A stretch of DNA of 50,184 nt, filler included, from Sphacelaria rigidula (lineage: Eukaryota), in the NCBI GenBank assembly GCA_964200075.2. It is 3 parts of 3 records of this genome, joined end to end, with 100 filler letters (N's around TTAATTAATTAA, not from the genome) between each part and the next. Parts side by side here need not be neighbours in the genome. Positions count along the whole stretch, not along the records: positions 16,765 to 33,425 come from CAXNAA020001286.1; 2 more parts are not named here. The stretch is one strand, 5' to 3'. The notes beneath the pieces are model-generated. The model ran no database searches. It worked only from the letters and a program-made list of their open reading frames with translations, and was not told the DNA's origin. Shown here in pieces: positions 7,501-34,602 of the stretch. The translations under genes and the position numbers were made by a program. The stretch's first letter is position 1. Every line of letters starts with the position of its first letter.

Positions 7501-8220
7501 GCGCTTAATACAGCGTATCGTCGTCGTTACGATAGTACACCGTACCACGTGATGTTTGGTCGTACCCCTCGGACGTCTTTCTCGGTGCTGGCGTCTTCGT
7601 CGGTGGGGGAATGGAAGTGTGATGTTCTGGACGATGTTCACATTAAGCGTGCATTGTGAGGAGTTGTGGATTTGCAAGAACGTTTCCACGTTCAAGTGCA
7701 GGAACGTGTTGCCGCTGAACGTGCGCGTAGACGTGAGGGGTCCTCGTCGGGGCTGGAGCTGCCGAATTTTGAGGTAGGCGACTATATCTTGTATGCACGC
7801 GTGCGTTGTCCGAGTGTTACGCCAAAGTTGATGGCGACGTGGACTGAACCATGGAGAGTGGTTGGTGCTCACCACCCGCACGTGTTTGAGATTCAGAACA
7901 TTGTTTTAGGTCGTGTTTAGACCGCCCATGTAGCTCGTTTGCGTTTTTATGCAGACTCGCAGCTTAATGTTACGGCTGACGTTAAGGATGTGTTCCAGCA
8001 TGCTTCCAGTAAGGGGTAATTTCAGATGGCTGGTATTGTCCGAGTGGCATCGTTCGTCGATCCTGTTGTTCGACTGGGTTGGTTTCGAAGGTGAGGAGCG
8101 TACGTGGGAGCCTTTCAAGGATATTTGTGAAGCCGCTCCGGAATTTCTTACGAAAGAGTTGCGTAAATTGCGCGTGACTCGCGCCATTGCTGCTCGCATT
8201 ACGAGTGAGTTTGTATTTAG
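4562..8220 (+). pseudogene. pol: pol: aspartic protease, RT, RNase H, integrase and chromodomain (multiple lesions)
   Basis: VLDSGA (protease); LNLLQGYWQ, PQGVLNA and WVDD (RT); FPGASESHWG and YTDH (RNase H); ILVIMDDLS, SDVATHF and GTCERMV (integrase); DWVGFEGEERTWEPF (chromodomain). Confidence 0.92.
6780..6953 (+). repeat. Tandem triplication of a 58-bp unit in the integrase zinc-finger region
   Basis: ATTTGCGCGCAAATGCGCGACGCCGGGCATCATGGGGTRCAAGAGTTGTGTGTCTGGC starts at 6780, 6838 and 6896. Confidence 0.95.
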
Positions 8221-16664: not shown

Positions 16665-16763
16665 NNNNNNNNNNNNNNNNNNNNNNNNNNNNNNNNNNNN
16701 NNNNNNNNTTAATTAATTAANNNNNNNNNNNNNNNNNNNNNNNNNNNNNNNNNNNNNNNNNNN
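16665..16763. other. Artificial contig linker (N-run, TTAATTAATTAA, N-run)
   Basis: A six-frame-stop 12-mer embedded in Ns. Confidence 0.95.
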
Positions 16764-18240
16764 NCCCGGTTTGTAAGGGTGCCAGGTCCATGGTCTTTTA
16801 TAGACCTTTGGCTGCCATGACCTCGGTCCCCCCCCCCCCCCCTCTCAATCTCACGTTGGCGCCACTCGTACTCATTTTCTGGGCTTTTGTATCATATCTG
16901 AAGGCCGTAGCCCCGACCTCAACAAGGTTTCCGCACTTGCCGACAAGCCCATGCCACAAGATGTTTCTCAATTCTACTCCTTGTTGGAGGAATGAGTTAC
17001 CGTACTGCCGTTGGTACTGGCGAAACCTGACCGAAACAGCGAAACCCCTCATTACCCCTATCAGGATTTTTTGTAGTTATTGTTCACGTCGTCGGAAATG
17101 GCATGAACATGACGTAGCCTGCTCGAAACCCTGTCACGACCTCCGATCTTGGTCTTCCCCGACTCGAAAGCTTTTGATTTCACACGGATTTCTCCGAAAT
17201 TAGGTTCGACTTCACGTTGGATCAACATCAGGAGGATGCTGCTAGTGTTCGCCCCATCGTATATCTAAGTCCGACCCGCAACGGAACGAACAAAGCTGCA
17301 CGGTCACAGAACAAGAGGCGGATACAGTCGATTTCTCTGTCAATATTTGTATGACATCCTGTTTGTGATTCATACGGATCATAAGTCCCTGGATAGACTC
17401 GCTAGTGGCGGGACACAACGCAAGGGCATAACGGTGATTCGAAATCCCGTCGTCTTACAACTTCAAGCTGAGATACCGAGCGGAAACTCAAGGTGAAAAT
17501 GCCGACGTGTTATCTAGATTGCTCGCATCGGCCACCCCCATCGGTGGTTAATGGTCACACGACTAAGGCAAGCAACAAATGAGTACGCCCCCCCATCAAC
17601 CGATCGGCCATGGGGCGCATTATGGATCCCACCGAAGACATCATATGTTTCATTAGCACAGGTGGTCTCCACGACCTCTACACACCACTTGCCACGTTCA
17701 CGGTTTAACGCGCCGGCGTTTGGCACCGGTGGGGCGACGAACTGCTGCTCACGCATCAGCATGACGCAGTTTGCAACCTCGATCGTTGCACTCAGCCTGA
17801 AGTGGATTGCCTGCGAACACCGTGTCCATCACCACTTCCGCGCAACTAGCCAACGCGCAGTTTTGCACAAGCCGTAGAAACGTCCTCGACTGACTTCGTC
17901 CCGCCAAATCTCTCACGAGATTCAATTTTGAGTACAAATCGTGTACGACCGGCCGCCGAGACCTTATTCCTCCTACCCCGGTGCCTGAATCCGTTGTCAC
18001 TCACAAGTCCCTCACGGTCTCGGGCCATCAAATGATACGTGACCGAGGTGGTCCATTCACGATCATGTACCATACATATTGGAAGGGTACTGTGCGTGTC
18101 ACATGGGAATGCGAAGTTGACTTGCGTCACCTTCGACGAGAAATATTGCTGTATTGGGTAGGACATGCCGTGCAACACCGTCCCATGGATGAGGACGCAG
18201 ATCTATGCGCAAGGGAGCGTCGGCACGAGAACTGACGCGG
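16764..18240 (+). pseudogene. Highly degenerate, deleted Ty3/gypsy pol remnant (RT, RNase H, integrase C-terminus and chromodomain), related to the element at 19763-33425
   Basis: Broken frames give HFLGFCIISEGRSPDLNKVSAL (RT), VRPIVYLS, IHTDHKSL and NADVLSRL (RNase H), and SGHQMIRDRGGPFTIMYHTYWKG...TWECEVDL...ILLYW (chromodomain). Confidence 0.8.
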
Positions 18241-18508
18241 GGGCACTCCACACCACGTCGATGTTAAGTGATGCTACGGTAGGGGTAGCACACAAATATT
18301 TTCTGAGGATAGAATCGTTGGGAGCCCTTTATCTCATCCAAACACGACTTATGAAAATATTCGAGAGTTCGCCAGGATTACTATTCCAATGCTCTGAGAA
18401 TACCCCGAATTAATCTGCAAACGGGGATGCCCTGACCCATATTCTTGTGCTTCTAGAATCATTAGGAACCCCTGAACCAGACAACACTTCGCGAAAAAAA
18501 GTGCACCC

Positions 18509-18732
18509 CTACCGTAGCATAGCTCTGTTGTGGAGGACGGCTTTATCGATATCGCCCTCGTCATGAAGCTGGAGACACCAGGACCCGCGGCGGACGGTCG
18601 GCACCTCGGGATGATGGGCGTCGTCCAGACAGATTCTGAGATGGGGCGAGTCATCCAGTGAATAATAAGTAGGACTCGTCGGGTGCAGGGTCAGCCAGAT
18701 GAAGTTTTACCAGTCACCACAGCGAGTCCGAG
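18509..18732 (-). pseudogene. Inverted fragment of the post-chromodomain C-terminal domain of the same Ty3/gypsy family
   Basis: Minus strand reads SDSLW*LVKLHLADPAPDESY, then a frameshift, then LDDSPHLRICL...RRGSWCLQLH. This is homologous to SDNLWWSGQ...YIVRYIDD...RGSWCLQRL at 20920-21095. Confidence 0.75.
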
Positions 18733-18802
18733 AGGGAGAGGAGGAGGGGGGGGGGATACTCATGATCTTGTATGCCGTGGTCATATTACAATTGACCTTG
18801 CA

Positions 18803-19322
18803 TCCCTACAAAGCCGGGACGGAGCACGCCGGGCTTTCGCCGGGCCAGGCTCGTAATCAATCACCAAGCGCGGAGCGCCGTGATGTGTTCGGCGAGTCGC
18901 ATGAAGAGTGAAGTGCCTCCTCCTAAGATTGTTTGGCCTGAGCGTACTGATTATTTTGCATCTAGATAATTGCCTCCAATGAGTTGCTTCATTTCCTGGT
19001 ATTGCTACTTCCACAGATAGCTATGGCTTACACACTGCCTCATGGGTGTCTCACCATTTAAACACTACGTAGCATGATCATCCCCATTGAGTGGAATTGA
19101 GGTTCTCCCACCCTGCACAAGATTAGCTCGACCATCATGGTTACCGTGATGAAAAACGCACAAAAGCAAAACAAAAATGGTCTCCTGGTTGCCTAGCTTA
19201 CGCAGTGAGTGGCGCGTTGTCCAGCGTCAATACCAAGCGACGCCAACCCCGTAGGGACCGTAGGGATCCGTCCCTACAAAGCCGGGACGGAGCACGTCGG
19301 GTTGCCGCCGGGCGAGGCTAGT
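18803..19322 (+). repeat. Two ~52-bp copies of a hairpin-rich, Helitron-like 3' terminus
   Basis: TCCCTACAAAGCCGGGACGGAGCACGYCGGG...CGCCGGGC-AGGCTCG|T (18803-18854) and ...AGGCTAG|T (19271-19322). Confidence 0.55.
18921..19073 (+). repeat. Dispersed repeat fragment, homologous to 33527-33673
   Basis: Shared CAATGAGTTGCTT...CTGGTAT...CCTCATGGGTGTC...AAACACTACGTAGC. Confidence 0.75.
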
Positions 19323-19762
19323 CTACGATAGGGGGTCGGGGGGGGGGGTTGCTTTTACGAAAAACAGAGCTAACTAGTGTGTCAGGCGATCCAACACGCT
19401 GCCGGTGCGCTTGTTCTTAGGGTTGAAACGATGTCAGTCACCACGAATGAGCGTTATTTATCGGTAACAAGCGCGTTTGAAGAACCGTTGCTGCTTTGAA
19501 CGACGATCTGAAGTGGAATTTCGTGGAAGAAATGGTCTGAAAGTATCATACATATGGCGTGTGCGCGCAATTATATCTTCAGTTCGTTGGCAATTTATAA
19601 TTGCATTTGCCTTCTGACAAAGGTAGACTCATAAGTGGGCTTCGGGAACTGCAATGACACGGAGGTCCATGAATTAAAGCTTCAAATGGAAGACGAGGAC
19701 TCATTAAGTGCACGCAAATACTCAACCAACTAAAGAAAAAGCCTTGAGACACACAACCAACG

Positions 19763-20242
19763 TGTATTGAAGAGCTGTAGTGCTATATTGCAAGGACACA
19801 GCTTGCAACCCAGGGCACAAGCTTACGAGGCAAGCGCACAACCGTCAGGCTGCTACAGCTTGCAGATGCTGCACACGGACTCAGCAACCAAATGTTAGAC
19901 AAGTGTTTCACGCGATGGTTCTTAACTTCTCCTTGATTGTCGTGTTTCTAACTCCAGTATCCAATCAATCAATCCAACCCAAATATGTCTCACCGATGCT
20001 CAGACTTCTTTCTGCTAGGAAGCAGGCGTGGAGCAGTAGATAGTGAGAAGGGTAGGCGAGCCAGATCTGCTGGAGCCGATCTGGCTGTCGCCATCTCTTA
20101 CCATATACAAGCTCATATTCGTACTCGACCAACTCTGAACAAACCTGCAGTCTTGGCTACCGAAACATCAGAAAGCACATAGCCAGACTCGACAAAGGGT
20201 CTGAAGCGGCATGACAACAGGCTTACATGCGTCTTCATGACA
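19763..20242 (-). repeat. 3' LTR (~480 bp; inner boundary inferred)
   Basis: Imperfect terminal inverted repeat TGTATTGAAGA / TCTTCATGACA. The adjacent minus-strand GGGTGGGTTAG resembles a PPT. Confidence 0.65.
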
Positions 20243-20849
20243 CTAACCCACCCAGACAAACCTTTATTACAGCTGCGAGGATTTATCCTCAACGCAGCGA
20301 AAACGAAGGTTTTTCATTACTCGTAAAGTCATGAGCGGCTAATAAAGCATACCTAAAGGAACACTCCCGTAACCAACACTCCCGTACCAACAATCCTGTA
20401 CCCACTCCCACACCTCAAAAGAAGGGAAGCATAGACTGCTTCGAGGAGCATAAAAAACTGCTCCGAAACGCGGAAGCACAAACTGCTTCTGCGTACTAGC
20501 GATCAACGAAGAAGCACAAATTGCTTCGGCGTCCTCGCAAAATTTAAGAGGGGAAAACAGGGAGGTACAACAGGGAGCAGAGCTCCAACCTGGGGGAATT
20601 TAAAGGTGCTAAAAACTGCAAGATCGGAAATCTGATAATCGCTGATCCCGCGAGATCGAGCGCCAGTTGAAGGGGATACTATAGCTCCAGTAGTCGTAGG
20701 TAGTAGTTGTCTCCGTAATCTTGATCGTCGTCCGATGTAGGTCGCGCTGTTGTTGTGCCGTAGAAGAGGATCCTGGTGGAGAAGGGAGGGCAGACAATGC
20801 TTACGAAAAAAATGGGGGTGGGGCAACAGTCGCGACAAAGAAGCGTGGT

Positions 20850-23800
20850 TCAAAGCGGGGCATGGACGTCGTGGGTGTGGTCGATGTTGCGCTGGAGACC
20901 GCGGCGAAGTCCTTTGGACTTGAGGCGCTGGAGACACCAGGATCCGCGCGATGCAGATGGGCTGGTGGTGTATAGTGCTGGCCGAAGCCTGAGCTGTATG
21001 GGCCCAGGGTCATCGATGTAGCGCACAATGTATGTGTCGGCCGAAACCAGGCTAGCGGGGTGGGTCTGACCCGACCACCAGAGGTTGTCGCTGCCTTTGG
21101 ACCAAAGGTAGCTGCCCTTGGGCAGGAGTTGCTGGTTCGCGAAGACCTTCGTCTTTCAAGTCTTGGTGTGTACAAGTTCGTAACCATCGGCGACGAAGCG
21201 TAGTCCCTGATTGCGGCGAAGTTCGCGGGCTGCTGCGCCACGGCGCATGTTGCGATATTTCTTGTTGTCAGCAAGATGCTGATCTTGGGATTGCGTCCAG
21301 TAAAGGAGGATTGCACGGCGGTGCAATTACAGGTCGGGTTCGCGTTCCCAAGACGCTCTCCGAAGACCGTGTCAGTGTGTCTTATACATGACAGCGATCT
21401 TGCCTCCTCGACCACGGGTTATCTGGTGGCCGGAAATGGAGGGCACGGTCAATCGAAGGGGCTGTTCCGTCACGTCGTCGATTGTAACGTGGTAGGGCGG
21501 GGACTTGGTCGAGTAGCTGTTGAGAACATACTGTGTGAGTCCGGCAGGCAGGTACTTGGGTATGTCACTTGTGTCATGCGGGTTCGTGCAAGGTTTACAT
21601 CTGTGCACGGAGACGCGGGGCTTGGTGTCCTTGCCCTGGAAGTCGCGAGGCAAGTCGAGATAGAGTAGTTTGTCATCAATGGGTTTTCCATCCGGTGATG
21701 ATGGCGATGGTCCGATTGTCAGGATCTTGAATGGCCCTGTCCAATTGAGGGATAATTTTGTCTTCAAAATCGTTTCGTTGGCTGCCTTGCTGGTGCCTTG
21801 GCGGATGGTCGACAAACTGTTGTAGATCCGGACCCAATCACCAACTTTCCAGTTAGGGCGTTTGTGCATGAGGTTGTAGAGAGCAGTGTTAGATCTCTCT
21901 AGGCGCGAGGCGTTGATAGCGTGTTGTTCGCACACGAGGGTGAACGCTTTGCGTTGTCGTGCATGCGCTCGCTCGTTGTAGGATATCTGATCCTGATCCA
22001 ATCCTTGGTGGCCGTCGAACGTGTGTCGCTCAAACACGGTGATAGGCAGCCGAGGGTAACGTCCAAGATGAAGTTCGTTCGGAGAAAGGCCTGTGGCGGC
22101 ATTAACCGAGTTGTTGTAGGACAACATGATGTACGAGAGATGTAGGTCCCAGTCATTTTGGCAGTCATTGACAACCATAGAGAGCATCTGGGCCATGGTG
22201 TGATTGACTCTTTCGGTAAATCGTTACCGTTCGGGTGGTGGGCGCTCGTGGCAATTTTGCGGATGCCCAGAAGCTTTTAAAGCTCATCAGAGAGGCCTGA
22301 GCAAGATTGCTGACCATTGTTTGAAAGTGGTCGCTTTGGACAACCGTAGTGCTTAATGTAATCGCGGACCAGTATGTCGGTCGTTCCGGCGGCAGTGAAA
22401 TCTGCGGCGGTTACCGCGTACATGGACGCGTGGCGGCTAAAGCGGTCAGCGAAGAGTAAGATGTAGGTGTTGCCGCGACCCGTGGTCGGTAGAGGGCCAA
22501 AGGAGTCGAAGTACACAAGGTGGCCGGGCTCGTCGGGGAGTCCCATAGAGATGACGGGCCAGCGTACTGTCTGTTGTGAAGTTTTTCCGGCTTGGCATTT
22601 AAAGCATCGCCGAATCAAGAAGCGGGTTGAAATTTCCATGCCTACCCATCAGTAGAAGCGTTCCAAGAGCGCGAGGGTGCGGGTGACGCCAAGGTGACAT
22701 TACAAGTCTATGTGGCAGCCTTTCATGACCCGGGGGCGCATTAATAATGGCACGTATGTGCGCATTGGTTCATCATTGAGTAGTCGAGCGGTGCGTCCCG
22801 TAGTCGAGGCGGCAATTGCGCCCATCAAAGGCATGGGCCGACGTACGAGTAGTTGCACACCCTCATCCGTAGTAAAAAGGGTGCCTTGACGCACGAGCTC
22901 GTATACGTCAGAAATAACTGGTGGTGGCCGTGTGCCAACCGGGGCCAGAAGTGTGGACGGAAAAGGGACTGGACAGTCGCGTTGTAAGTACCGGATGGCT
23001 GCGCGACATAGCGGTTCTGCGTTTTGTTCGCGAGCCCAATCGCGGTGGGAGTAGCTGGCGAGAAACTCGCGTTGTTGACCTTCCGCTGGCGAGCCGACCA
23101 AACATGGTAGGGCAGGCGGCAGGGGAATAGGCGACGGGGCAGAAATGCCGACGTCAATATCTGTCCTGGGAGCAGGAGACGAGTCGTCAGTTCCGTGCTC
23201 GGGGGCAAGAGATGTTTGCGGTACCGTTATGGGCGGCGGTGCTGTATCAGTGCGCGGCGAAGATTGTCCGCGGCTCGTGGCGCACTGTGCAGAAGTTTTC
23301 GCGGAGCTTTGCGTGTTGCTCCGTGGAACTTGTGCTGGGTGGCTCATATAGGTTGCAGGTGTTGTTGGTGGCGGCGGGGCACTCGGTGTGGTGCGGGCGG
23401 CAGACCGGGAGCGTGTGTTGTCGGAGATAAGGTGGGTGACTAGAGGTGTCTCCGCGAAGAGTTTCGCGCGAGTACCGAAAGTGCGAAAGTCGACAAAATC
23501 GGAGGTAGTGGGCTTTAACCCAGCCAAGACGGCGTCATATGGTAGAGGGCGAGGTCCTCCCATATGCATACCGGTTTCCGGGCACTGGAGTTCGAGGGCG
23601 TAAACCGGCGTTGAAAACGTCTAATCGCGTGAATTCCGGGTTCATCGGATTCCGTTTAACGGCAAGCCGGGCTGGAATCTGCGGCCGTAGGCGGCAGAGG
23701 TAGACAGGAAAGAAGATCAGCGTTCTCGTTGTTTTTGATTGGACAGTGCTTAATGGTGTACTGGTATTAGTGGTGTACTGGTATGCTGTTAGAAACTCTA

Positions 23801-26205
23801 ACCATCGCTGTACACACAAGGGTTATGTTCGCTGACCTTGGCGAGTTGTGCAAGTGCTCTGTGATCCGTATAGATCTCGAAGGGCACGTGAAACAGATAT
23901 TGTCGAAGGTGCTTAATGGCCCAAGTGATTACTCCGCCTTCCAGTTCTAGCGGGCTCCGATTGGCCTCGTTGGGCAGGGTAGCGCGGCTGATATAAAGGA
24001 TGGGTCGGACGGAGTCATCAACCTGAGGTTGGTTCAAAACTCCTCCAAATCCGTTTGTGCTGGCGTCAGTGTCGAGTTGGAAAAGGCGAGAGCTATCTTG
24101 TACTGCCTCCCAATCAGGAAAGCAAAGTACGGGCTTTTCGGTAAGCGTTTTGAGTAATGCACGGGTGATATTCTCCATTTCGGTTGTGAAAGAAAACACG
24201 GCTGCTTTCTTGAGTAGCTCAGTAAGGGGGCGAATCCGTTTAGATAAATTCGGCAAATTTGCGGTAGTAGGATAGCCCGCCCAACAATGAGCGAAGTTGA
24301 GAAATGTTAGTTGGCCTCGGCAAATCAGTCATCGGCTTGACTTTGTTCGTATCTGGATGCAAGCCTGCCGGCGAAATGGAATGCCCCAAGAAATCCAAGT
24401 CAGTCGCACCAAGGTGAGCTTTGGATGAAGACAGTTTCAAATCGTGCGTGCGTAGGTTAGAGAGAAATTCTGGTAGAGTTGATATATGTGCAATAGGTGA
24501 GACATCGAAAGCGATAGCGTCATCCAGGTACATGATGTGCTCGAGGCCCTCGGTGACGTATTGCATTAAGCGTTGAAAGCATCCCGGGGCAGTGGCGGCG
24601 CCTCGTGGCATTCGAAGCCACTCATAGAGCCCGAACGAGGTACAAAAGGCCGTCAGTGGGACTGTGTCAGGGTGTATAGCATTCTGGAAAAACCCAGAAG
24701 CGAGGTCGAAGGTGCTGAATATTTTGCCTTCGCCTAAGGAGTCGAAAACTTCATCAATGCGGGGAATTGGAAGTTTACCGACTACAGTGACGCGGTTCAA
24801 CCGTTGATAGTTCACGGTTATACGTATGTTTCCATCATTTTGGGGGACGACCACAAAGGGCGAGGCCCAAGGAGATTAGGAATGTTGTTTTAACCCCGCT
24901 CCCAGATACGCCTCCAACATGGTGTTAACGTTTTTGGTAAGATTCGGGTTTGTTCAGTATAGCCGAGAAGAAATCGGCGAGACACCGGGTTGGAGGGTAA
25001 CCTCAAAGGGCAGTGTTTTGCAATGCCCAAGATCCGTCTTGGATCGGGAAAATCGGTCTTGGTACTGTAGCAGAACATCACTGGGTTCTCTGTTGACTGC
25101 CGGTTCCCAGCCGGGCCCATGAAGGTCAAAATTGATGTCGCGCATGTGTGGCGGCCGTTGGTTCCACATGTGCAAGAAGCTGTTCCGAGAATCTGGTGAT
25201 GACCGTTGAAACGCTTCAGCAGGAGGATCGGGATTTGACTGGACATGTTCCACGGTGTGGGCCTGGGGTGGAGTCGCAGAGGCGAGGTCGAAATAGGGTC
25301 CATCGACACAATGGACTGACTCCGCCGGAGATGTGGCGTTTGGCGCGGCAGGCTCTGTGACGCACGTCTAGAGTGGGATGTGCATCAGGGGAGCAGCGGC
25401 GATTCCTAAAACATCGCCGGGTTCCAAGTTAGCATGACCCGTAAGAGGGAGGAGTTGTTGTCCCACCGGCACAAAATGTTCTGTGTCGGCTGGTGCGCCA
25501 ATACGGGGTAACATTTCGGCAAGATAACGGCCCGTAAGTGCTGGCATGCCATTTCGGCGAACTAGTGCAACTTCAAGAAGTTGGGGGTCGTCGGAGAGTG
25601 TTATACCCACGCTACCGTTATATCGTAGATGATAAGCAGCTCCGGTTACTTGAGGGTTCTTCTGATAAGCCAGGGCGCCGTGGAGAGTACCGAAGTGCTC
25701 GAGGTTGAATTCTCCACGCGGCGTGGAATGTGGCGTTAGTGGTGGAAGCGTGCGGTAGGTGCGTTTATTAAACCGCATATAGCTATCTCTGCCCAATAAT
25801 ATGGCGTGATGCATTGTGCTGTCGGGGACAATGTATGCCCAGACTGCCAGGCTGGCAGATCGAGTGGTGTTGTGAAAAACTGTACACTGAGACGTACGGA
25901 TTTACGTGTCGTCAGTGGCGCGGCAGAATCCCCAAAACCGCCCCACACGCAAGGTTTGGTGGGGTTTCGCAAGCTGCAGTAGCAGCGCCAGTCTTTTTCA
26001 TGTGTTTCCACGTTGATTCTCGAATAAATGTTTGCGGGCCGCCGCTGTCCAACAAGGATACGCATTTCGTAGGCGTGATAGCGTTCGGACCGGAATGGAT
26101 CGCAACGTGAGTAGTGAAAGCGGCCTGATCTACAGACACTTTACCGCCGACAAGATCCGGACCGTGTTCCGGCAAGGTAAACTGGTCAGGATCAGCGGGG
26201 CTCAC
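20850..26205 (-). pseudogene. pol: pol: protease, RT, RNase H, integrase, chromodomain and an extra C-terminal domain
   Basis: LLDSGGPQTFI (protease); FDLASGFFQ, WLRMPRG and YLDD (RT); DTDASTNG, LELE and YTDH (RNase H); CFKC, DSFGPLP and DRFSR (integrase); NWTGPF; YKTH*HG...SWEREPDL (chromodomain). Many stops and frameshifts. Confidence 0.93.
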
Positions 26206-27008
26206 CGCAAAAACGCACGGTGGATGATCCGCCGGTGGGTCAGATGTCTCACCAGAGAAGGGGGTGGACGGTATATTATTTCTAGGTGTGACACGGTCAT
26301 TGGTGATTTCGTGAATGATCGTCTTTGGTTGACAGGGAACACCGTCGAAGGGGGATCCAGAATGTGCGGGGCTGGAATCGTCGATTGGAGAAGTAGTGCC
26401 GTCAGAGTTATGTGATTTTGTTTCTTCCGGGATACTTGATAGAGCCGTCGAAGTTAAAGTCGTCGCATTTTGGAGAGATTGAGGTCGAGGATATAAGTCG
26501 AAAGAGGTGTACGTAATGATGCGCGCGCGTCCTTGAGGGCATGCTTACGGGGAACTTCCAAAACATTTGGGGATGAAACCACAACTGCGTCCAGTTGCGT
26601 GGATGCGGTCAGCATCGGGGCATGACGGAGCGAAACTTGTGGGCTGCTTTCCGTAGGCAAGCTTGGCTGTTGGGGCATAGCCGAAGACATGTTGGGGTGG
26701 TTGTAGTAAAACCGGCCGAAGGTAGGTCCGTGCGTGTTGAAAATCGCGGGGAAGGAGCTCGATCCAACTGATCGGGAATTACATGATCCGATGTGGTCAA
26801 GTTCAAATCAGCAACAACACTTGGGTCAGCTGGAAAAGGCTTGCTACTACCTGTGCGTGCGGTCGCTGAGGGAAGCCTCTGCCTCAGGGACTGGCGGTTG
26901 GCTTCCCACACCTCAGACTTATACTCGGCACTGAAGGACCAAGTTCAAAGCCGGGTGTAGATCTGAGTCGCGGGGTGACACAACTGTTACGCGGTGTGTG
27001 GATGAGGG

Positions 27009-27177
27009 AAGACGGGGATCGATATGAACGGCCGTCAGTTGCACTCCTACATAGTGCCAGGAGAGCCGGGCGGACAATCTTAGTCGCAGGCTCTGCGGAC
27101 TGTGTTGAAAATTGTGTGGAGGTTGGAGACGGGGGTCGATATGAACGGCCGTCAGTTACGCTCCTGGATAGTGCCGG
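27009..27177. repeat. ~50-bp direct repeat pair between gag and protease
   Basis: AGACGGGGRTCGATATGAACGGCCGTCAGTT...ATAGTGCC at ~27010 and ~27127. Confidence 0.85.
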
Positions 27178-27285
27178 GGGAGTAGAGTGAGCAATTTTTG
27201 ACACGAACTCCGCGGGCTGTGTTGAGAAAGTCTTCGCTCGTGCTATTGGCGGCGTGGAAGACCGAAGAATGCCGGCGTCCGCACG

Positions 27286-30200
27286 TCATGGGTCTAAGTG
27301 ATCCGTAGTGAAGGTACCAGGGTTTCTGGTGTTGGGATTAGAGCTCTGTGTCGGTCCCGTGTCTCCCAGCGGAACGTTTGTTGTCGCGAGAATTTTGATC
27401 GTTCTGGCGAGGGCTTCCGTGATTGTTGTTTTGTCGGCGACCGCGATTAGAGCTTTTGTGCCACGTTGGTTCGAATTGTTACGGTAATTTCGATTAGGTG
27501 GACGGTAGTCGCGCATGCGCTTTTGCCATCGGCGCCACGCGGGTTCATTGCCCTGCAATTCAGGGTTCATGAGATCAAAGGCATTGATGTATGGACTGTC
27601 GCAGTCGCGCATGCTGTGGCCTTGAACACTACAGTTGATGCAACTGTTGGCATGACTGCTGAAGTCATTGCGTCTAGCGGAAGACGAAAGAAGTGGGTTC
27701 CACAAATGGGGGTTATCGGCTATGAATGTCGTTGTTGAAGTCATATAAACATCATCCCAAATTTCCTCGGGAAACGGTCAACCATCAAAACTTGCGCTAA
27801 ATGCATCTCTGGTACCCTGAACATGGATAAGTGAACCGGCGACCGAGTCGGGGGTCCATGAAGCGCGAGACGAGCTCGAATTCTTGCCGCGAGTCCCTTG
27901 GGCATGAGCGGAGGACACAACCGTAGGTTGTGAACGCACAGACGTAGAAGGTTTGCCACGTATGGCAGGCGTTAGATTACCCTCTTGGTGTACAAAAGCA
28001 GACCACATAGTATCAACGGAGGCGTAAGGCAACTCGCGATGCGCCAAGACACCCGGAAACAACGACGGCATCAGAGCCGGACACTGTTGAGCAACGCTAT
28101 AGCGAACATAAGTCTGACACATTGCGTCGCTCGGTCCGTTCTGGCGTCCGACACCCGTCGTACCCAAAACCAAAAGCTTGAATTCGCGGAGATAATCCGC
28201 GAATGGGGACGTCAGAGGCGACAGCAAAAGAACTCAGCCTCTGGATGGCACTGGCTTGGTCACTTTTATCGAAGAACCGATCAAACGCCTCTCCAATTCA
28301 GAGAGTAATACCGGGCCTGTCTTCCCCTTGGCTCGGCCCGGGTCCATCTTGGCGAGGAAGCCGTCGAGAATCTGCGTTAAAGAAGCAGCGAGGTCGGGAG
28401 AGCGGCGGCTGATCAATCGATGCATTGCTTTGTGCAAGGGAGTCTGTCAGCCCTATACCCAGTCGGAATCTTCGAAACGTTGTGTGCCAGTCACATCCAC
28501 CAAGTGAAGAATGTTACAAACAGTACGGCGGATGGACGTGATAAGGGCAGAAGTAAACTGGCCCGAATCTTCGTTATCCGCAGCAGGCATGGTTTTGATG
28601 TGCCAGAGGTTTTTCACATCCATCTGAATATATTGTCCCTGCATTGTAGCTACTCAGGCAGACTCAGCTCTATCGGAAGCTGCTTTTTTGCTAGCTTCGG
28701 AACGTTCTTTGTTAGCCGCAGCGGTTGCTAAGACGCGGGCTGCAGTAGAAGACAAAGGACGGCCAGGTGTGTCCGTATCGGATAAACCTAAAATGCGAGC
28801 CGAAACATCAGCCAATTTAGGAATCACTTGCTTGGGGGTCGCCGAACCCGAGGGGGGAAGGTCTGTGTCAGACCGGTTCCGGCCAGTTGCGGATGAACCG
28901 GAAGAGTTACCTCCGGGGTTTTTGCGGTGCGGTTTGCGCGGCGGGCGGCTTGGTCCGGAACCGCCCGAACAGGATCCCCCACCGCCATGGCGGCGGTGTG
29001 AATTCCCTCCATCGTTGCCGTCGTCATCGCGCCTGCGATTCTTCTTCTGGCCCCAGCAATTGGATGTTACGGGAGTCCATCCATCTTCATCTTCGTCTCC
29101 GCCGATGGTGGCGCCGGGATGAGTGTTGTAGGCGGCGCGAAGCGCCGCAAAAAGTTGGATGACCGCGGCAACGTAAGTGTGGCGGTCCCGGTGATTGCCA
29201 ATGGTTGTCTGCAGAACCAGTTGGTCCAAGATGAGCACCGGGACGCCTTCTTCGGGGATGAAGCCGTTCTGGTCGACGTAAACCCCCACAGCATAAAACA
29301 TTCACTGTGAGATCAGGGCCCATGCGTCACGGGAGCAATGAAGGTGATTTCGGCGTTCGAAGGGACCGGTATAGGTGGCCACGGGACGAGAAAGCCACGC
29401 TCATTCGTGGGACACCAGTTGCAAGTCTTGTGCAGAAACGGCATTCGCCACCGAGCTAACTCCATGCGGTGGCGGTGTCGGAGGCGTCGTGGGGGCGGCA
29501 GCGGACGACGTCCTGTCGGACTTACGTGGAATGACGTAAGTCGATCTGTTGAGCGTTGGCAGGCGGGCTCTGAGCAAGTGTTTGGCGAAAGGCGGAGAGG
29601 CTTGATGGTCGGATAAGCGCGCCACCGACGAGTCCGCTTCTTGAGCCGTCCGCCGGACATGGTCTTCGAGCTCGCGGACCCGTCTCTGGGCCGCCATGGC
29701 TGCAGTACGGCCCTCCTGCAGCGCTCGTTACGCCGCCGTGCTCGTGGATTGAGCATGGGAGGCCTGCCGATGAAGGTCCTTGAGCTTTTCTACGTGATCC
29801 TCCAGAAGGAGGCGGGCAGTGGCGGCGTCAGCGTCGCGTTGCTGATCAAGGATGTGTTGTGCTAAAGCAGGCGCCTGTGATGCATAGTCATCAATCAGCT
29901 GGAGCTGTTCCGCACGGGGTCAGTTTGTGAACAGCCTTGAAAGTAGGTCAGTCGGGCAGCGCTCGTCGCCGAGCGGAGGGAGAACCTCCACGGATGGGGG
30001 CGGGCGCACGGGGGCAGTGGTAGAAGCACTATCGGCGTCCGTGTCAACGACCGACGGAGCGGCGGCGGTTAAAGGAGCAGCGGCCACGGTAGCAGTACAG
30101 TAGCTACAGTGGTTGCGGCAGTGGTTGCTGCGGGAACGCCAGAGGGCTCAGTGGTGCTCTTGGCGAGAGCGGCAGCGGATCTTGTAGTGTCCATGGTTGA

Positions 30201-31670
30201 TAGTTGTTGCTCGAGTTCTGTCAAGCGTTGTTGAAGAGAACGAATAATCGCAGCATAGGAGCGGGACGGTGGATTGCGGTCAGTGCGGGGTCGTCGGTTT
30301 TGCGATGAGGTGCGGCCGGACCCTTCAATGGAGGAGTCCAGAGCCGGTGACATGTCTGAAAATATGTTTTGGATATCATCAGCATATACAGTGTTATCAT
30401 TGCGTACATGACGGCGGTGTGACAGATGCGGAGCAGGAGAGGTGCGCGAGGGTGCATGATCGGTGTTTTTCGAGCGCGAGTGAACGCGCGAAGAACTTGA
30501 TCTGTGCCGCAAGGCATCCTCGTGAGCACGTTCACGGTTAGCATTCACCGGGCGCTTCTGAGCGCGCGATGGATTTCAACTGTGACGTGAACTACCGTCA
30601 TAAGTGTAACCATAAGTGACGTTCTTCGGGCGTGTAGAAACGCGCGATGAATTCAAGCTTTGCTGGGCGTTGCCTTTAGAACTGCCAGAGTGGGAGACGT
30701 GGTCGTGACCAAGTCTCGGTGTGCGGCGCCGATCAGAAGCGCGAGTAAGACTCTGGTGTGACGTTGAGGAAGGGCTGGACTCATGTTCATTGAATTTGTC
30801 ATGAGTGACGAACGGAGAGCGCGATAACGCCGAAGGGGGCGCCAAACGTACGGGTTTGAGCGTGGCAAGTGCAGAATAATCATTGAATTGCACGTGAGCA
30901 GACGCCGATTGATGTTGGAGCGTGGCGTGGCAAAAAACCGTAAATGCCTCGATGAGAGCTGGCGCTGGCGAGGGCGACGACGCCGATGAGGTACGATGCA
31001 GAGTTTGCATGGTAGTATGCATGCCCGCAACTGCCGGTCCGACATTGGACTGCGCAGTAGGGCGCACGGGACTATCGAGAGTCGTGCGAAGGGGGTCCGT
31101 AACGGAAGCAGCCCGTGTGACCAAGTCCCTTGCTCCAGAAGCGATACGCTTCGTCGGGATAGAATCGTCTCGAGAGTTGTCAGCCGTCAAGCGACGGGGT
31201 GCCACGGTTGAAGCAACCGTTACAGGGCCAAGCTGGACACGTGGATCCAGGGGCAACGGCTCAGCTGGGGGCACAATCCTGACTCCGGATTCAACATTGG
31301 AATTCGGAAGAACAGAACGCAGCGGGGGGGGTGCAACGGAATCCACCGTTATGGGTTCACTTACATGTTCGTCAGGAACCTATGACTCAGCCGGCTGCAC
31401 TACCTTGTTCTCTGAGTCCGAGTCGGAACGTGAGAGAACAGGTCTCCGCGTCAAAGTCTTGTCTTCAAGCCTTGAAGAACGGGCATCGCTCGAAGGTTGG
31501 TCTTCAGATCCCGAAGATCGAACAGCGCTCGCATACGTGCGGCGATGAGTTGAAGGTGACGTGACACTCATCTTAAAAGATTTCGAACCGCCAGTAGTTT
31601 GACTCCAGGTCCGACGAAGCGATTGGTTTCCCGATTGGGGGGAAGAGCCAGCGTTATTTCTGTGCGACAT
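27286..31670 (-). pseudogene. gag: Very long gag-like ORF1 (fragmented) with CCHC zinc knuckle
   Basis: Chain of minus-strand ORFs starting MSHRNNAG (31670); capsid-like PFADYLREFKLL; CINCSVQGHSMRDC fits CX2CX4HX4C (~27600-27645). Confidence 0.75.
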
Positions 31671-33297
31671 GATAGTCGGACGCACTTGTGTGCTTAAATA
31701 GGCAGGGGCAGTGTGTCAGATCTGCGGGCTCTAGGTAAAGGAGCGTGACACCAAGAGATGCTACGTGCAAAGGCCGAAGCTTGTATCCGGAAATACGGGA
31801 GAATGAAGCCTAATAGCGCCTGAGGGGACCGTGGGACCTGATTTACTTGAGTAATATATTCAAGCAAATTGCTTTATGTAACAGCTATGTCCGGGGTCTG
31901 GTTAATACAACTTTATTCAAGTTGTTGCGGTGATAGCTATCAACGGAGCTCGGGATTGCGCACAGAAGAAGTCTTCGAAGAAAAGCGAAGACCGGGTTGT
32001 CTGTAGCAGCGTTGGTACGTGAAAGTTGTACAACTTACACGTGTTCCGGGTGTGGCGTCACGGGCAGACTCTAACTGTATTATCCCGGTACATGCTGAGG
32101 GACGACTGGCGGTGTGCAATGAAGATGTATATATATATATTTCAAATGAACACGAAAATTGTGCAGCGTGAGGCAGCACAAAAGCTTTTACAAACCTTGA
32201 GATGTAGACCGCGAAATCGGACTGCGTAGTGCAGGGCGAAGGCTTGTGACACAACGGAGTTGAGGCAATGTATGTATGTGGAACAAAGGTGACGTGGTGC
32301 ACAACAGGGGCAACGCTGAGAGCGAGTGCCGAAAAATTGTAGTGCATAGGCAAGGGGAACTGTTTTCGAGTGCTGTCTGTTCAAATGAGTACGTAACGTG
32401 GGTTTGAAATGTTTCAACGGGTATTATCGCAACGAAACCGGCTCGGAACAATAAATTTATTCGTTCGAGAGGGGGTCAAAGGAGAAAGAGTTCACAGTTC
32501 GTCGTGCTGTGTATTGTTACTTGCCACGGTGATGTACCGCGTTGCTCTACGGATGTGCGAAGTACAGAAGAGGACAACAACAAAAAAGTAGCTACAAGCA
32601 ACGAAGTTAAAGAGCCGGAACGGGTCCAAATCTCGTGTACAGATGTCCGTGGTCACTTTGTGGGAGCACGGGTTGTACTTGTTCAGTAATTTCGTGAAGG
32701 AAAGAGACAACGGTCGCGTACATTCGAGACTGAAAATAAGAGCAGCAGAGTGCTGACTTGGCAGGAAGCTCAGGTCAGGGACAGCGGCTGACTATGAACA
32801 ACAGTGCGCCTTGTTCACTGGTGTTCTGTACAAACCTGTAGTAGGAGACTTCTCCTGGCAGAAGGGAAGGGGTCAACAAGACCAAATACGCGAGCCAACG
32901 ATGGCGTGGCGCGTGATCGTGCCGGACTGAATCACCAAGGGATTTACGTCGTGCAGTCGGAACTTACACCGTGCGACGTTGTGCGGGTGTATATGTCCAA
33001 AATGACAGCAAGGCGAAAATAGCAAGCGGTGCGCGTTGACCCAACGTAGCACAAGATGTGCAGTCAAGCGCTGCGGCAAGTCGCAAGTAGCAGGGCACGA
33101 ATACTCTTTACCAAGGGACACACAGGGTAGAAGCTTGCAGAAGCTACTGACTATCGAGACGCGATAGGTTCGACTATTTACTGTACCGAAGAAAAAACAC
33201 GAGGAGGCAAAAATGATCACGAAGCTGGGGTCACGCAGCTCGACGGGCAGGGATACAAATCGGTATCAAGAAGGAAACGCAATTGCAAAAGAAGAAG

Positions 33298-33315
33298 CTC
33301 CTCAGTCGAACGCCA
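33298..33315 (-). promoter_or_regulatory. Putative primer-binding site
   Basis: TGGCGTTCGACTGAGGAG begins 1 nt after the LTR-terminal CA and is complementary to a tRNA-like 3' end (...CCUCAGUCGAACGCCA). The tRNA was not identified. Confidence 0.6.
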
Positions 33316-33316
33316 A

Positions 33317-33425
33317 TGTAATGGAAAGCTGTAGTGCTATATTGCAAGGACACAGCTTGCAACCCAGGGCACAAGCTTACGAGGCAAGCGCACAACCGTC
33401 AGGCTGCTACAGCTTGCAGATGCTG
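33317..33425 (-). repeat. Partial 5' LTR
   Basis: 33327-33425 is identical to 19773-19871; the first 10 bp show 3 mismatches. Confidence 0.9.
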
Positions 33426-33525
33426 NNNNNNNNNNNNNNNNNNNNNNNNNNNNNNNNNNNNNNNNNNNNTTAATTAATTAANNNNNNNNNNNNNNNNNNN
33501 NNNNNNNNNNNNNNNNNNNNNNNNN
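33426..33525. other. Artificial contig linker
   Basis: N-run with a central TTAATTAATTAA. Confidence 0.95.
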
Positions 33526-34602
33526 TCCTGCAAAGCTTGTTCGGCCCGAAGTGTACTGGTTATCTTGCATTCGGATGACAGCCTACAATGAGTTGCTTTA
33601 CTTTCTGGTATCGCCACTTTCAGAGACAGCCACAGCTTCCACCCTACCTCATGGGTGTCAAACACTACGTAGCTGCGTAGGGGGGGATATCACGGCATCA
33701 GCAATTCAATCCATAACCAACGCCTTTGACCTAGAAATAGCGAAGGTTCCTTCCTGTCCTCTGGGAACAGAAAAAAAAAACTGTACAAGTCGTCAGAGCA
33801 TGGTCCCAGACCAGCATCCATTGACGGCGAAACCATAATGACGAACCCGTGCAACGATGCAGCCAGATAGCAGCATCACTGCACCCTTCGGTATCGTAAA
33901 TCGAGCCTGGATATGCATATTGACTGCCCTGGATAGTGCGGCACAGTACAGTACCGTACCGTGCCTTACAGGGTACTGTATTATTGAACTGCCTTATGTA
34001 CAATACTACAGTTGTAGTAGTAACGTATCGCCGAGTTACACGGGAGGTCTTGATGCAAGAAGTATCGTGGTAACGTTGGCCAAAGCACAATATTGCCGTT
34101 CCAAACATGCCTTCGAAATGCCTGACCTGTTGCTGGGCAATTTTAAGGCGACCGTGAAGCTCTCGATGGGCCATAGCGATGTTCCCCCTCCTCCTCGGAT
34201 GCCTTCCACCTCTGTAGTATATCCTCGGGAGATGAGAACGCTGTCACATTCGTATATTCAACAGCATACCCGCGATCAAGAATGAAAAAAGAGTACTTGA
34301 AACCTGGATAATTAATCAGGCGTTCAGTCATAGGATAGCGCACACCAATCTTCTCGCGGAGATTCACGCGGGGACTACTGTAGCACGTTTCCCTGATGAA
34401 TATCTACGTATAAATATGAATAAACGCAGACTGAAGATGACAGAAAAATAACACTCCCTACGAAGTTGGCAAATGACGTCTGTATGCTGTCCTGTATGCA
34501 GCGCCGGTCGCGGCGAACACATGTGCAGTTGGGGCCACCCACATATAACGCTGCCACAGAAGAAGGCAGTCACGAGTCAGTTTAATCCGCAAGAGCAAGA
34601 CG

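Follow-up and report, generated by a model that had tools for sequence, protein, structure and literature searches.

The window analysed here is a stretch of 50,184 nucleotides from Sphacelaria rigidula in which three pieces are joined by N/TTAATTAATTAA spacers; the module described below lies wholly within piece 2 (16765-33425). The locus is the 3' end of the pol of a dead, brown-alga-type Ty3/gypsy LTR retrotransposon. Its integrase extends past the GPY/F region into a conserved module of some 190 residues, in which a chromodomain is followed by a helical linker rich in arginine and then by a barrel of the Tudor-like kind (Table 1). Using tblastn, the element was found to be colinear with residues 24-1834 of P0155 and 402-2170 of P0190, two relatives with a complete Pol, 1848 and 2184 amino acids long, respectively. 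Pfam domains follow each other in the full-length relatives in the order RT, RNase H, Integrase_H2C2, rve. Both the order of RT, RNase H and integrase and the Ty3-type homology of the integrase (H2C2, DDE core, GPY/F) place the element in Ty3/gypsy (Metaviridae). The integrase changes frame at about 22223-22277, downstream of which positions 299-751 of profile A3 match the window element with an E-value of 2.3e-202; against the PDB, the same profile retrieved the Ty3 Gag-Pol integrase (1.1e-35) and the PFV integrase (about 2e-19). No LTR pair was detected around 20850-27300 by self-blastn, including at word size 7, in this decayed copy on a piece bounded by 16765 and 33425. Judged from its sequence, the window copy is non-functional, because the module holds three stops, the integrase is frameshifted and no LTR pair was found. 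The earlier note had set the integrase against chromoviral ones; for this element, the term chromoviral can be kept in a functional sense only, as the chromodomain-bearing Gypsy lineages of Ectocarpus are described as unrelated to chromoviruses or Chronos (PMC12477816, cited throughout from the accessible part of its text, as is PMC3350952).

Table 1 Features of the element and of related relics in the window
Feature	Position	Strand	Basis and remarks
Pol-homologous body of decayed Ty3/gypsy element	20853..26265	-	Several frameshifts and stops; colinear tblastn with full-length relatives
Reverse transcriptase	24240..24875	-	Pfam RVT_1, E=9.1e-19
RNase H	23798..24328	-	Pfam RT_RNaseH, 3.7e-22; RT_RNaseH_2, 1.3e-18
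Integrase zinc-binding region and catalytic core	22223..23320	-	Profile A3 positions 21-297, E=6.4e-108
Integrase C-terminal region with GPF (GPY/F-type) motif WTGPFKIL	21465..22220	-	Translation; within A3 match 299-751
Chromodomain (P0001 residues about 254-312)	21288..21464	-	Broken by in-frame stops TGA 21374-21372 and TAA 21329-21327; aligns to chromodomain of relatives
Linker with conserved Arg-rich helix (YRNMRRGAAARELRR), short strand and second helix	21129..21287	-	In-frame stop TGA 21158-21156
Tudor-like five-stranded barrel (LLPKGSYLW ... GSWCLQ)	20925..21128	-	Homologues, profile, fold, dN/dS
Brief C-terminal tail of lower conservation, with the final stop	20850..20924	-	Translation
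Another relic of this family, with extensive deletions	16816..18243	+	tblastn with P0155, P0174 and P0001
Relic of C-terminal half of Tudor-like domain	18512..18658	-	A3 positions 700-748, E=5.9e-6; tblastn with P0174, 6e-5

Translation of the minus strand from 22223 to 20850 yielded a single frame with three internal stops and a terminal TGA at 20852-20850. The prolongation of the integrase frame by 174 codons with three stops, as proposed in the earlier note, was recovered with the same count upon re-translation (21374 to 20853, minus strand), and the three peptide stretches quoted there were all found as transcribed. Alignments revealed that each of the three stop columns is occupied by a sense residue in intact relatives. 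When the last 101 codons (21155-20853) were used as a query, 203 representative protein clusters were matched at a threshold of E<=1e-3, of which 56 also passed E<=1e-10, the best match having an E-value of 2e-29 and 62% identity.

The earlier note had held that intact members stopping right after the chromodomain would argue against a second domain; instead, integrase, chromodomain, linker and Tudor-like domain follow each other uninterrupted at the C-terminus in 22 of 34 long relatives, and the Tudor-like match ends there 0 to 26 residues short of the C-terminus. In a cluster of 197 members sharing at least 90% identity, an uninterrupted integrase-to-Tudor span ending at most 1 residue from the C-terminus was present in 5 of the 14 further members listed. 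Pairwise identity among 17 uninterrupted sequences was 0.65 for the integrase tail, 0.64 for the chromodomain, 0.46 for the linker, 0.53 for the Tudor-like domain and 0.34 for the tail. Residues D219, P223, W244 and L246 of the Tudor region are invariant, and W190, W198, W199, G201, R216, P221, L228, Y233 and C245 are nearly so. A comparison of the intact loci L001 and L002 gave dN/dS values of 0.10 (integrase tail), 0.11 (chromodomain), 0.27 (linker) and 0.09 (Tudor-like domain), all of them approximate as dS was saturated. These values agree with the earlier call of conserved coding sequence, and the module is under purifying selection. Relatives with a named source belong to Ectocarpus sp. 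CCAP 1310/34 and to Undaria, which fits the guess that the host is a brown alga. An N-terminal NADAR (YbiA-type) domain occurs in P0174 of Ectocarpus sp. CCAP 1310/34 (1.9e-40) and in P0190 (3.6e-48), each of which also has the chromodomain and the Tudor-like domain; it is absent from P0155, and none was found in the decayed window copy.

All statements on folds are based on the AlphaFold model of the intact relative P0005, not on the low-confidence model of the window's own tail. Over residues 71-260, its pLDDT ranges from 87 to 98 in means of 10-residue blocks, except for one linker block with a value of 78. The module is predicted to contain a chromodomain fold and a Tudor fold. As anticipated, the first of the two extra domains is modelled as a chromodomain: three strands (78-88, 94-102 and 109-112) form a sheet followed by a C-terminal helix (113-128), at a pLDDT of about 87-96. 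Upon re-scoring of the Foldseek matches by VIA, every one of the best 50 rows was a chromo or a chromoshadow domain, with Z values of 7.7-8.6, and the chromodomain of HP1 (1kna) could be superimposed with a Z of 8.0 and an rmsd of 1.1 Å over 50 residues. Profile matches to the chromodomains of Swi6 and MPP8 were obtained with E-values of 0.006-0.012. The gathering score of Pfam PF00385 was not reached, the best score being 17.1 bits (P0014) against a cut-off of 25.1, with nothing in the window's own pieces; sub-threshold Chromo matches were present in 8 of 86 members (best E 0.0051). In the alignment with MPP8, with the residues that we take to form its cage marked, the tryptophan of the WKG sequence, equivalent to W45, is kept, while no aromatic residue stands at the first or the third position, leaving one of three. 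The earlier note was right about the loss of the first cage aromatic and wrong in limiting the loss to that residue, as the third is missing too. The chromodomain cage has been described as consisting of Y24, W45 and Y48 (PMC3350952).

The linker is modelled with helices at 139-156 and 171-178 (pLDDT about 78-97). Its arginine pattern is strongly conserved: across 26 sequences R155 is invariant, and R145, A149 and R151 are nearly invariant. It is followed by a barrel with strands at 188-192, 198-206, 212-217, 223-227 and 244-249, modelled with a pLDDT of 94-98. Foldseek matched the P0005 model to the PHF1 and PHF19 Tudor domains with a probability of 1.00 and TM-scores, normalised to the target, of 0.60-0.66; superposition gave an rmsd of 1.7-2.8 Å over 43-51 columns at 27-30% identity. 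All Foldseek E-values were above 1e-3, those for the P0005 model being 0.015-0.07. The A1 profile, searched against the PDB, likewise had PHF19 and PHF1 Tudors as its best 9 of 13 matches (best E 0.0047), and a language-model search led to clusters of Tudor, Agenet and 53BP1 proteins with scores of 0.80-0.87. Pfam searches of the window pieces and of the relatives gave no Tudor, PWWP, Agenet or Chromo match at the gathering score; sub-threshold matches among 86 members were to SH3_VIII-1_N (10), Agenet (6), PWWP (2) and Tudor_2 (1). AlphaFold modelling of the window's own 101-residue tail, using 56 sequences, reached a pLDDT of 63.7, and the Foldseek rows obtained with it were Tudors at E>=0.17. 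In an unbiased VIA search with this weak model, no row reached a Z of 5, and Tudor chains were mixed with RimM, KOW and SH3 barrels. On the A1 profile and the Foldseek matches of the AlphaFold model, the assignment of the second domain to the Royal family proposed in the earlier note is upheld: it is predicted to be a Tudor-like barrel with the PHF1 and PHF19 Tudors as its nearest matches.

The PHF1 Tudor cage is formed by W41, Y47, F65 and F71, and a three-aromatic cage, that of MTF2, already binds weakly (PMC7492083). In the HMM alignment, W41 is replaced by a small residue, Y47 by tryptophan and F65 by phenylalanine or tyrosine, while the equivalent of F71 is a conserved proline, a position extrapolated by counting two residues past the printed alignment, such that two of four positions are aromatic. 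The equivalent of PHF1 D67 is an invariant aspartate. Because the cage is incomplete at these PHF1 positions, the idea that the second domain might supply methyl-lysine binding is put forward as a hypothesis.

A second member of the family has left traces nearby. The plus-strand relic consists of an RT/RNase H fragment (16816-17536) and a fragment of chromodomain and linker (17975-18243), in which the chromodomain at 18014-18190 was matched by the family profile with an E-value of 1.4e-19. The earlier note had described a diverged relative at 18509-18732; the minus-strand part listed in Table 1 is borne out by the profile, whereas upstream of 18658 the sequence is in another frame and gave no score. 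This Tudor-like relic is inverted relative to the adjoining chromodomain relic, and the two are thus not one colinear second copy.

Several known systems resemble the window family in part. Chromoviruses (MAGGY and the Tf1-type group I, as well as the plant group II) also carry a chromodomain at the C-terminus of integrase, for which a part in the targeting of integration has been either demonstrated or suggested. They end in a single chromodomain, whereas the window family has a chromodomain and a Tudor-like domain. Its cage state, with the equivalent of W45 alone kept, matches the description of group II, the chromodomains of which have been identified only in plants (PMC3350952). The chromodomain of the fungal MAGGY element is directed to heterochromatin by H3K9me2/3 (PMC3350952). 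The brown-algal lineages are placed outside the chromovirus and Chronos clades (PMC12477816). Among these, the NADAR-bearing lineage IV of Ectocarpus (Gypsy-12_Ec32) likewise has a putative C-terminal chromodomain fused to integrase; judged from domain content, it is the one the window family is like, although the accessible text of PMC12477816 mentions the chromodomain alone and no second Tudor-like domain. Gypsy-10_Ec32, in turn, is like the window family in that its integrase, also that of a brown-algal Gypsy element, has a domain of the Tudor superfamily at the C-terminus, but it belongs, by its description in that paper rather than by sequence, to a separate lineage that lacks a chromodomain (PMC12477816). 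A Tudor-carrying Gypsy element of Ectocarpus was therefore already in print in 2025, which lowers the novelty of the present one; the combination of chromodomain and Tudor in one Pol is not reported in the accessible text of that paper (PMC12477816).

The Tudors of the Polycomb-like proteins PHF1, PHF19 and MTF2 are the best profile and structural match, with the equivalents of Y47, F65 and D67 conserved. They differ in that the W41 and F71 equivalents of the window family are non-aromatic, that some 16 residues are inserted between strands 4 and 5, and that the context is a retrotransposon Pol instead of a PRC2 accessory protein, at 27-30% identity over about 45 residues. A functional parallel is offered by LEDGF/p75, the PWWP domain of which tethers HIV-1 integrase, such that a Royal-family reader directs integration to a histone methyl mark. 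LEDGF/p75 is a host reader acting in trans, whereas the reader-like domains of the window family are part of the integrase itself.

The explanation that we prefer, and consider reasonably probable as a whole, is that of a brown-alga-type Ty3/gypsy integrase with a chromodomain-linker-Tudor module that tethers it to nucleosomes and steers insertion. The module would travel into the intasome on integrase and tether it to nucleosomes, by which new copies would enter a preferred chromatin state. That it helps to decide the insertion sites of new copies is probable by analogy, because the MAGGY chromodomain is reported to work in this way. Ectocarpus is reported to lack H3K27me3 and H3K9me1/2/3 and to have negligible 5mC, while H3K79me2 and H4K20me3 are associated with its repeats (PMC12477816). 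As both cages are incomplete and methylation of H3K9 and H3K27 is reported to be absent from Ectocarpus, the ligand is probably not H3K9me3. The most likely mode would be the recognition of another methyl mark (H3K36me3, H4K20me3 or H3K79me2), or a mode in which the two barrels and the basic helix jointly contact the nucleosome. A more specific and rather doubtful version would have a two-headed nucleosome reader, combining a re-shaped, Trp-rich Tudor pocket with a cage-poor chromodomain, read one or more brown-algal marks and steer integration in cis; candidates would be, for instance, H3K36me3 and the repeat-borne H4K20me3 and H3K79me2, singly or combined.

The C-terminal tail is real coding sequence, far beyond chance, because of the 203 homologous clusters, the uninterrupted ORFs in relatives, the dN/dS of about 0.09 and the confident fold. 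The same evidence rules out a non-coding 3' UTR or LTR with a frame open by chance, a reading in line with the three stops in the window copy and the missing Pfam match, the probability of which is practically negligible. The C-terminal domains of retroviral and Ty3-type integrases are SH3/Tudor-like barrels, and RSV and MMTV integrases were among the low-probability Foldseek rows, which would fit a misreading of the integrase's own SH3-like (GPY/F) module as a second domain. These rows have probabilities of 0.18-0.28 and an rmsd of 16-23 Å, however, and the WTGPFKIL motif at about 21700-21760 lies upstream of the chromodomain, with the Tudor-like barrel some 100 residues downstream; this very improbable reading is ruled out by the order of the domains.

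Two other readings carry more weight. The second barrel could be a Tudor/SH3-like fold put to another use, such as binding of DNA, RNA, a host protein or, with the Arg-rich helix, the nucleosome acidic patch; integration may still be steered in that case, without histone-mark reading by an aromatic cage. This is possible, though we would not expect it. It is consistent with the two of four PHF1 cage positions that are aromatic (F71 being extrapolated), with the weak binding reported for incomplete cages (PMC7492083), with the invariant or nearly invariant linker arginines and with the nucleic-acid-binding RimM, KOW and EF-P barrels, which fell within Z 1 of the Tudor rows in the weak-model search. 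Yet the closest solved structures found by Foldseek with the confident model are methyl-lysine-reading Tudors (27-30% identity), the invariant aspartate corresponds to PHF1 D67, a residue in contact with the methyl-ammonium, and W190, W198 and W244, invariant or nearly so, might fill out a cage from elsewhere in the domain. Somewhat less probable still is that the domain is the very Tudor already published for Gypsy-10_Ec32 of Ectocarpus, the upstream chromodomain having been overlooked: a C-terminal Tudor (cd20401) is indeed reported for that element, with a homologue in Tribonema (PMC12477816). The same source, however, sets the Tudor lineage apart from three chromodomain lineages and assigns NADAR to a chromodomain lineage exemplified by Gypsy-12_Ec32 (PMC12477816). 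As NADAR, chromodomain and Tudor-like domain occur together in P0174 and P0190, the window family probably falls into the NADAR/chromodomain lineage, and no paper describing a single Pol with the two domains was found in full-text literature searches.

The fusion of a chromodomain to integrase is the textbook example of how a mobile element picks its landing site by reading chromatin, and the marks that such domains usually read, namely H3K9me, H3K27me3 and 5mC, are reported to be missing from brown algae (PMC12477816). A widespread and selected two-domain module would offer a handle on the marks of brown-algal repeat chromatin and on how retrotransposons find safe sites. It would add a tandem of chromodomain and Tudor to the integrase-reader fusions, of which single readers alone were found described in the literature searched. 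If the two-headed version were true, such a reader would have evolved where chromatin is without H3K9 and H3K27 methylation. It would then be an inbuilt equivalent of the tethering of integrase by LEDGF/p75, and could be used as a natural probe of a stramenopile heterochromatin code that is otherwise unknown.

Further searches concerned the distribution of the family. The BFVD viral structure library gave no match at E<=0.001, with no module-bearing retro-element among the matches listed, and the N-terminal part of P0016, which is unrelated, matched nothing but itself when used as a query. P0067 and P0116 were considered as cellular repeat proteins with the domain and rejected, their matches being made up of numerous weak stretches, each with an E-value of 0.0035 to about 3. 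Both are bacterial-type repeat proteins. A sequencing-run search, in which no RNA run was listed, returned 11 matching runs with shares of 0.06-0.35, including 'algae metagenome' and 'marine sediment metagenome', and a metagenome scan with alignment A3 yielded 4 loci.

The minus-strand surroundings of the module are a decayed Ty3/gypsy Pol (see table), in which window positions 26265-20880 are colinear with full-length relatives (residues 24-1834 of the Pol protein P0155 and 402-2170 of P0190). The integrase of the window copy is frameshifted, and self-comparison of the window DNA found no LTR pair around the element. The window consists of three joined pieces of ~16.66 kb each, separated by N/TTAATTAATTAA spacers, so that features of different pieces have no genomic neighbourhood; the two-barrel integrase module lies wholly within the middle piece. 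As the earlier note had proposed, the integrase frame goes on past the ORF end through three stops: exactly those three are present in the translation, which also contains all the peptide stretches of the integrase tail quoted there. The first stop sits on the column of the chromodomain WKG tryptophan. The GPF motif (WTGPFKIL) of the integrase's own C-terminal region is found upstream of the chromodomain, and both later barrels are thus additional to that region; this rules out that the second barrel is the integrase's own C-terminal domain. A Pro/Ser/Thr-rich ORF separates RNase H from the integrase zinc-binding region, and full-length relatives have a comparably long spacer between RNase H and H2C2 (in P0155, RNase H ends at 825 and H2C2 starts at 1199). 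A tandem direct repeat is located upstream of the Pol-homologous region.

Features of the window, with strand and basis of assignment
Feature	Positions	Strand	Basis
RT	24875-24240	minus	Pfam
RNase H	24328-23798	minus	Pfam
Integrase zinc-binding region and core	23320-22223	minus	Family profile, E 6e-108
Integrase tail and extra module	22220-20862	minus	Family profile, E 2e-202
Integrase C-terminal frame	22223 to terminal stop 20852-20850	minus	Translation
In-frame stops of the module	21374-21372, 21329-21327, 21158-21156	minus	Translation
Linker helix between the barrels	21215-21259	minus	
Pro/Ser/Thr-rich ORF, ~300 residues	22700-23620	minus	
Tandem direct repeat, ~117 bp, 77% identity	26995-27228		
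Second family relic	16816-18243	plus	
Tudor-like remnant of second relic	18512-18658	minus	
RT and integrase fragments, distant Gypsy-type element (piece 1)	5037-5952, 7150-7788	plus	
109-bp repeat, 97% identity	19763-19871, 33317-33425		
Weaker repeat	18918-19073, 33526-33673		
Spacers	16665-16764, 33426-33525		

The fold of the module was modelled with AlphaFold2 on the intact relative P0005 using an 86-sequence alignment (mean pLDDT 79.6; block means of 87-98 over residues 71-260, except for one linker block at 78). P0005 is 44 % identical to the 101-aa tail of the window copy in the alignment of the Tudor-like domain and 48 % identical in the matched stretch. In the model, its residues 78-128 fold into three strands and one helix. 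When the 1000 best Foldseek chains were compared again with VIA, every one of the best 50 rows was a chromo or chromoshadow domain (Z 7.7-8.6), with HP1 (1kna) superimposing at an rmsd of 1.1 Å over 50 residues at 28 % identity; the first extra domain thus folds as a chromodomain, as the earlier note had read it. The family profile matched the Swi6 and MPP8 chromodomains at E 0.006-0.012. The Pfam chromodomain threshold was not reached: the best match, in the intact homologue P0014, scored 17.1 bits (cut-off 25.1), and sub-threshold Chromo matches occurred in 8 of 86 members. Alignment with MPP8 leaves the WKG tryptophan as the only cage residue kept. The first cage aromatic is absent, as had been claimed, and the third is absent too (the residues at positions 1 and 3, numbered Y24 and Y48 in PMC3350952, are nonaromatic). 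The same cage state is described in PMC3350952 for "group II" retrotransposon chromodomains.

Residues 188-249 of P0005 form five strands (pLDDT 94-98), the fourth and fifth being separated by an insertion of ~16 residues; the modelled barrel is preceded by a short strand and a helix and followed by a helix. The best Foldseek matches in the PDB were the Tudor domains of PHF19 and PHF1 (probability 1.00; TM(target) 0.60-0.66, rmsd 1.7-2.8 Å over 43-51 columns, 27-30 % identity), at E-values of 0.015-0.05 and none at or below 1e-3; the MPP8 chromodomain appeared as a separate row covering the first domain. A profile of the Tudor-like domain, searched against all PDB sequences without any structure input, gave 13 matches at E ≤ 10, the nine best being PHF19/PHF1 Tudor domains (best E 0.0047). 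The tail of the window copy itself gave a weaker model (pLDDT 63.7), for which Tudors headed the Foldseek list (TDRD3, PHF1, PHF19, SND1; E ≥ 0.17). A Foldseek-independent search with this model retrieved Spindlin-4 (Z 4.9) and the BAHCC1, TDRD3, UHRF1, and SETDB1 Tudors, intermixed with other small barrels and with nothing at Z ≥ 5. Language-model neighbours were also of the Tudor type, at low scores. The predicted fold of the second domain is that of the Tudor/Royal family, in agreement with the earlier note, and the profile matches are suggestive, not decisive, of common descent with PCL-type Tudors. In the linker helix between the barrels, R145, R151, and R155 (P0005 numbering) are invariant or nearly so; one might speculate that they offer additional binding to DNA or to the acidic patch.

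A HMMER search of 1.84 billion representative proteins with just the last 101 codons matched 203 at E ≤ 1e-3, 56 of them at E ≤ 1e-10 (best 2e-29, 62 % identity). Among the 150 tail matches listed, mostly short fragments, 32 also contained some of the chromodomain/linker segment and five the integrase tail. Two proteins, P0067 and P0116, were set aside as bacterial-type repeat proteins with weak repeated stretches only. A word-based search with P0014 yielded 34 longer relatives. Intact family members do not stop right after the chromodomain: integrase, chromodomain, linker, and second domain were all present in 22 of the 34, among them Pol proteins 1618-1848 aa long, and the second-domain match ended 0 to 26 residues short of the C-terminus, at most 14 short in all but one of the 22. 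Three others end inside or just past the chromodomain and nine before it. The P0166 cluster groups 197 proteins (≥90 % identity), whose contigs reach 2.4 Mb; five of the 14 further members listed have an unbroken integrase-to-Tudor span that stops at most one residue short of the C-terminus. The relative P0196 is an internal-deletion derivative in which residues 1-720 of the 2184-aa Pol P0190, NADAR included, are joined to the last 116, the Tudor-like domain; deleted copies retain the 3' coding end. P0016, P0030, and P0101 carry a C-terminal Tudor-like domain (P0101 a chromodomain as well) after 430-730 N-terminal residues unrelated to Pol. These N-terminal parts are Ser/Arg-rich and coiled-coil-like, with 23 % identity between P0016 and P0030 over 350 aa; they could be gag-like pieces left in deletion derivatives, or else represent a further carrier for the module.

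Across 17 uninterrupted sequences (136 pairs), mean pairwise identity is highest in the integrase tail (0.65) and the chromodomain (0.64), followed by the second domain (0.53), the linker (0.46), and the tail (0.34). For L001 and L002, two intact diverged loci with DNA from a metagenome scan, Nei-Gojobori dN/dS was 0.10 in the integrase tail, 0.11 in the chromodomain, 0.27 in the linker, and 0.09 in the second domain, values that are rough owing to saturation at synonymous sites (pS about 0.7). L003, which is almost identical to L002 but has one stop, is too similar to it to be informative, and the frameshifted L004 was excluded. Nonsynonymous change has nonetheless clearly been held back, and the tail is genuine, conserved coding sequence.

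A conserved, selected two-barrel module is fused to the integrase. It would enter the pre-integration complex together with the integrase and, by analogy with the MAGGY chromodomain, whose targeting is reported to proceed via H3K9me2/3 (PMC3350952), could bind nucleosomes and so bias the landing sites of new copies. Ectocarpus is reported to lack H3K27me3 and H3K9me1/2/3 and to have negligible 5mC, its repeats carrying H3K79me2 and H4K20me3 (PMC12477816); the usual chromodomain ligand is therefore probably absent, which fits a stripped chromodomain cage and a gained second reader. The leading alternative is that the barrel has a ligand other than methyl-lysine. In PHF1 the cage consists of W41, Y47, F65, and F71, supported by D67 and S69, and the three-aromatic cage of MTF2 is reported to bind weakly (PMC7492083). 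HMMER alignment to PHF1 puts a near-invariant W at Y47, F (Y in the window copy) at F65, and an invariant D at D67; W41 is replaced by a small residue (A/G/S), S69 by P, and F71, by extrapolation two residues past the end of the alignment, by a conserved proline. Two of the four aromatic positions, Y47 and F65, are kept if the extrapolated proline at F71 is counted as a loss. Near-invariant tryptophans occupy the "leucyl patch" positions L38 and L46 of PHF1, and W244 of strand 5 is invariant; these might line an alternative pocket. In piece 2, fragments of at least two copies of the family lie within 10 kb of sequence, a weak hint compatible with insertion into repeat-rich chromatin that passive accumulation explains equally well.

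Named relatives include proteins of Ectocarpus sp. CCAP 1310/34 and one with an Undaria label. P0174 (Ectocarpus) and P0190 have the order N-terminal NADAR, RT, RNase H, integrase, chromodomain, and Tudor-like domain; domain searches found no NADAR in P0155 or the window copy. Four Gypsy lineages are described in Ectocarpus, three with putative C-terminal chromodomains, one of which (Gypsy-12_Ec32) also has an N-terminal NADAR; a separate lineage with a C-terminal Tudor, Gypsy-10_Ec32, is presented as the first report of a Tudor domain in a TE (PMC12477816, Genome Biol 2025). Royal-family readers fused to brown-algal integrases are thus already known. The main-text and supplementary passages of that paper that were covered make no mention of a chromodomain and a Tudor in one Pol; a 2025 brown-algal centromere preprint mentions chromodomains only ("Tudor" occurs 0 times), and full-text searches on Tudor, chromodomain, and integrase with Gypsy/retrotransposon, or on NADAR, Gypsy, and chromodomain, retrieved no other report. 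The tandem chromodomain and Tudor-like module in a NADAR-type lineage appears unreported so far, and it is unlikely that its second domain is the published Gypsy-10_Ec32 Tudor.

A second, heavily deleted relic of the family in piece 2 consists of an RT/RNase H fragment followed by chromodomain and linker, the integrase missing. Of the diverged relative that the earlier note placed at 18509-18732, the Tudor-like remnant at 18512-18658 is supported; its strand is opposite to that of the adjoining chromodomain relic, pointing to a local inversion or a pair of nested fragments. The Gypsy-type fragments of piece 1 belong to a different, more distant element (RT 25-30 % identical to that of the window family; integrase profile match E=8e-14). 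The second copy of the 109-bp repeat runs up to the very last base of piece 2, and that of the weaker repeat lies at the start of piece 3.
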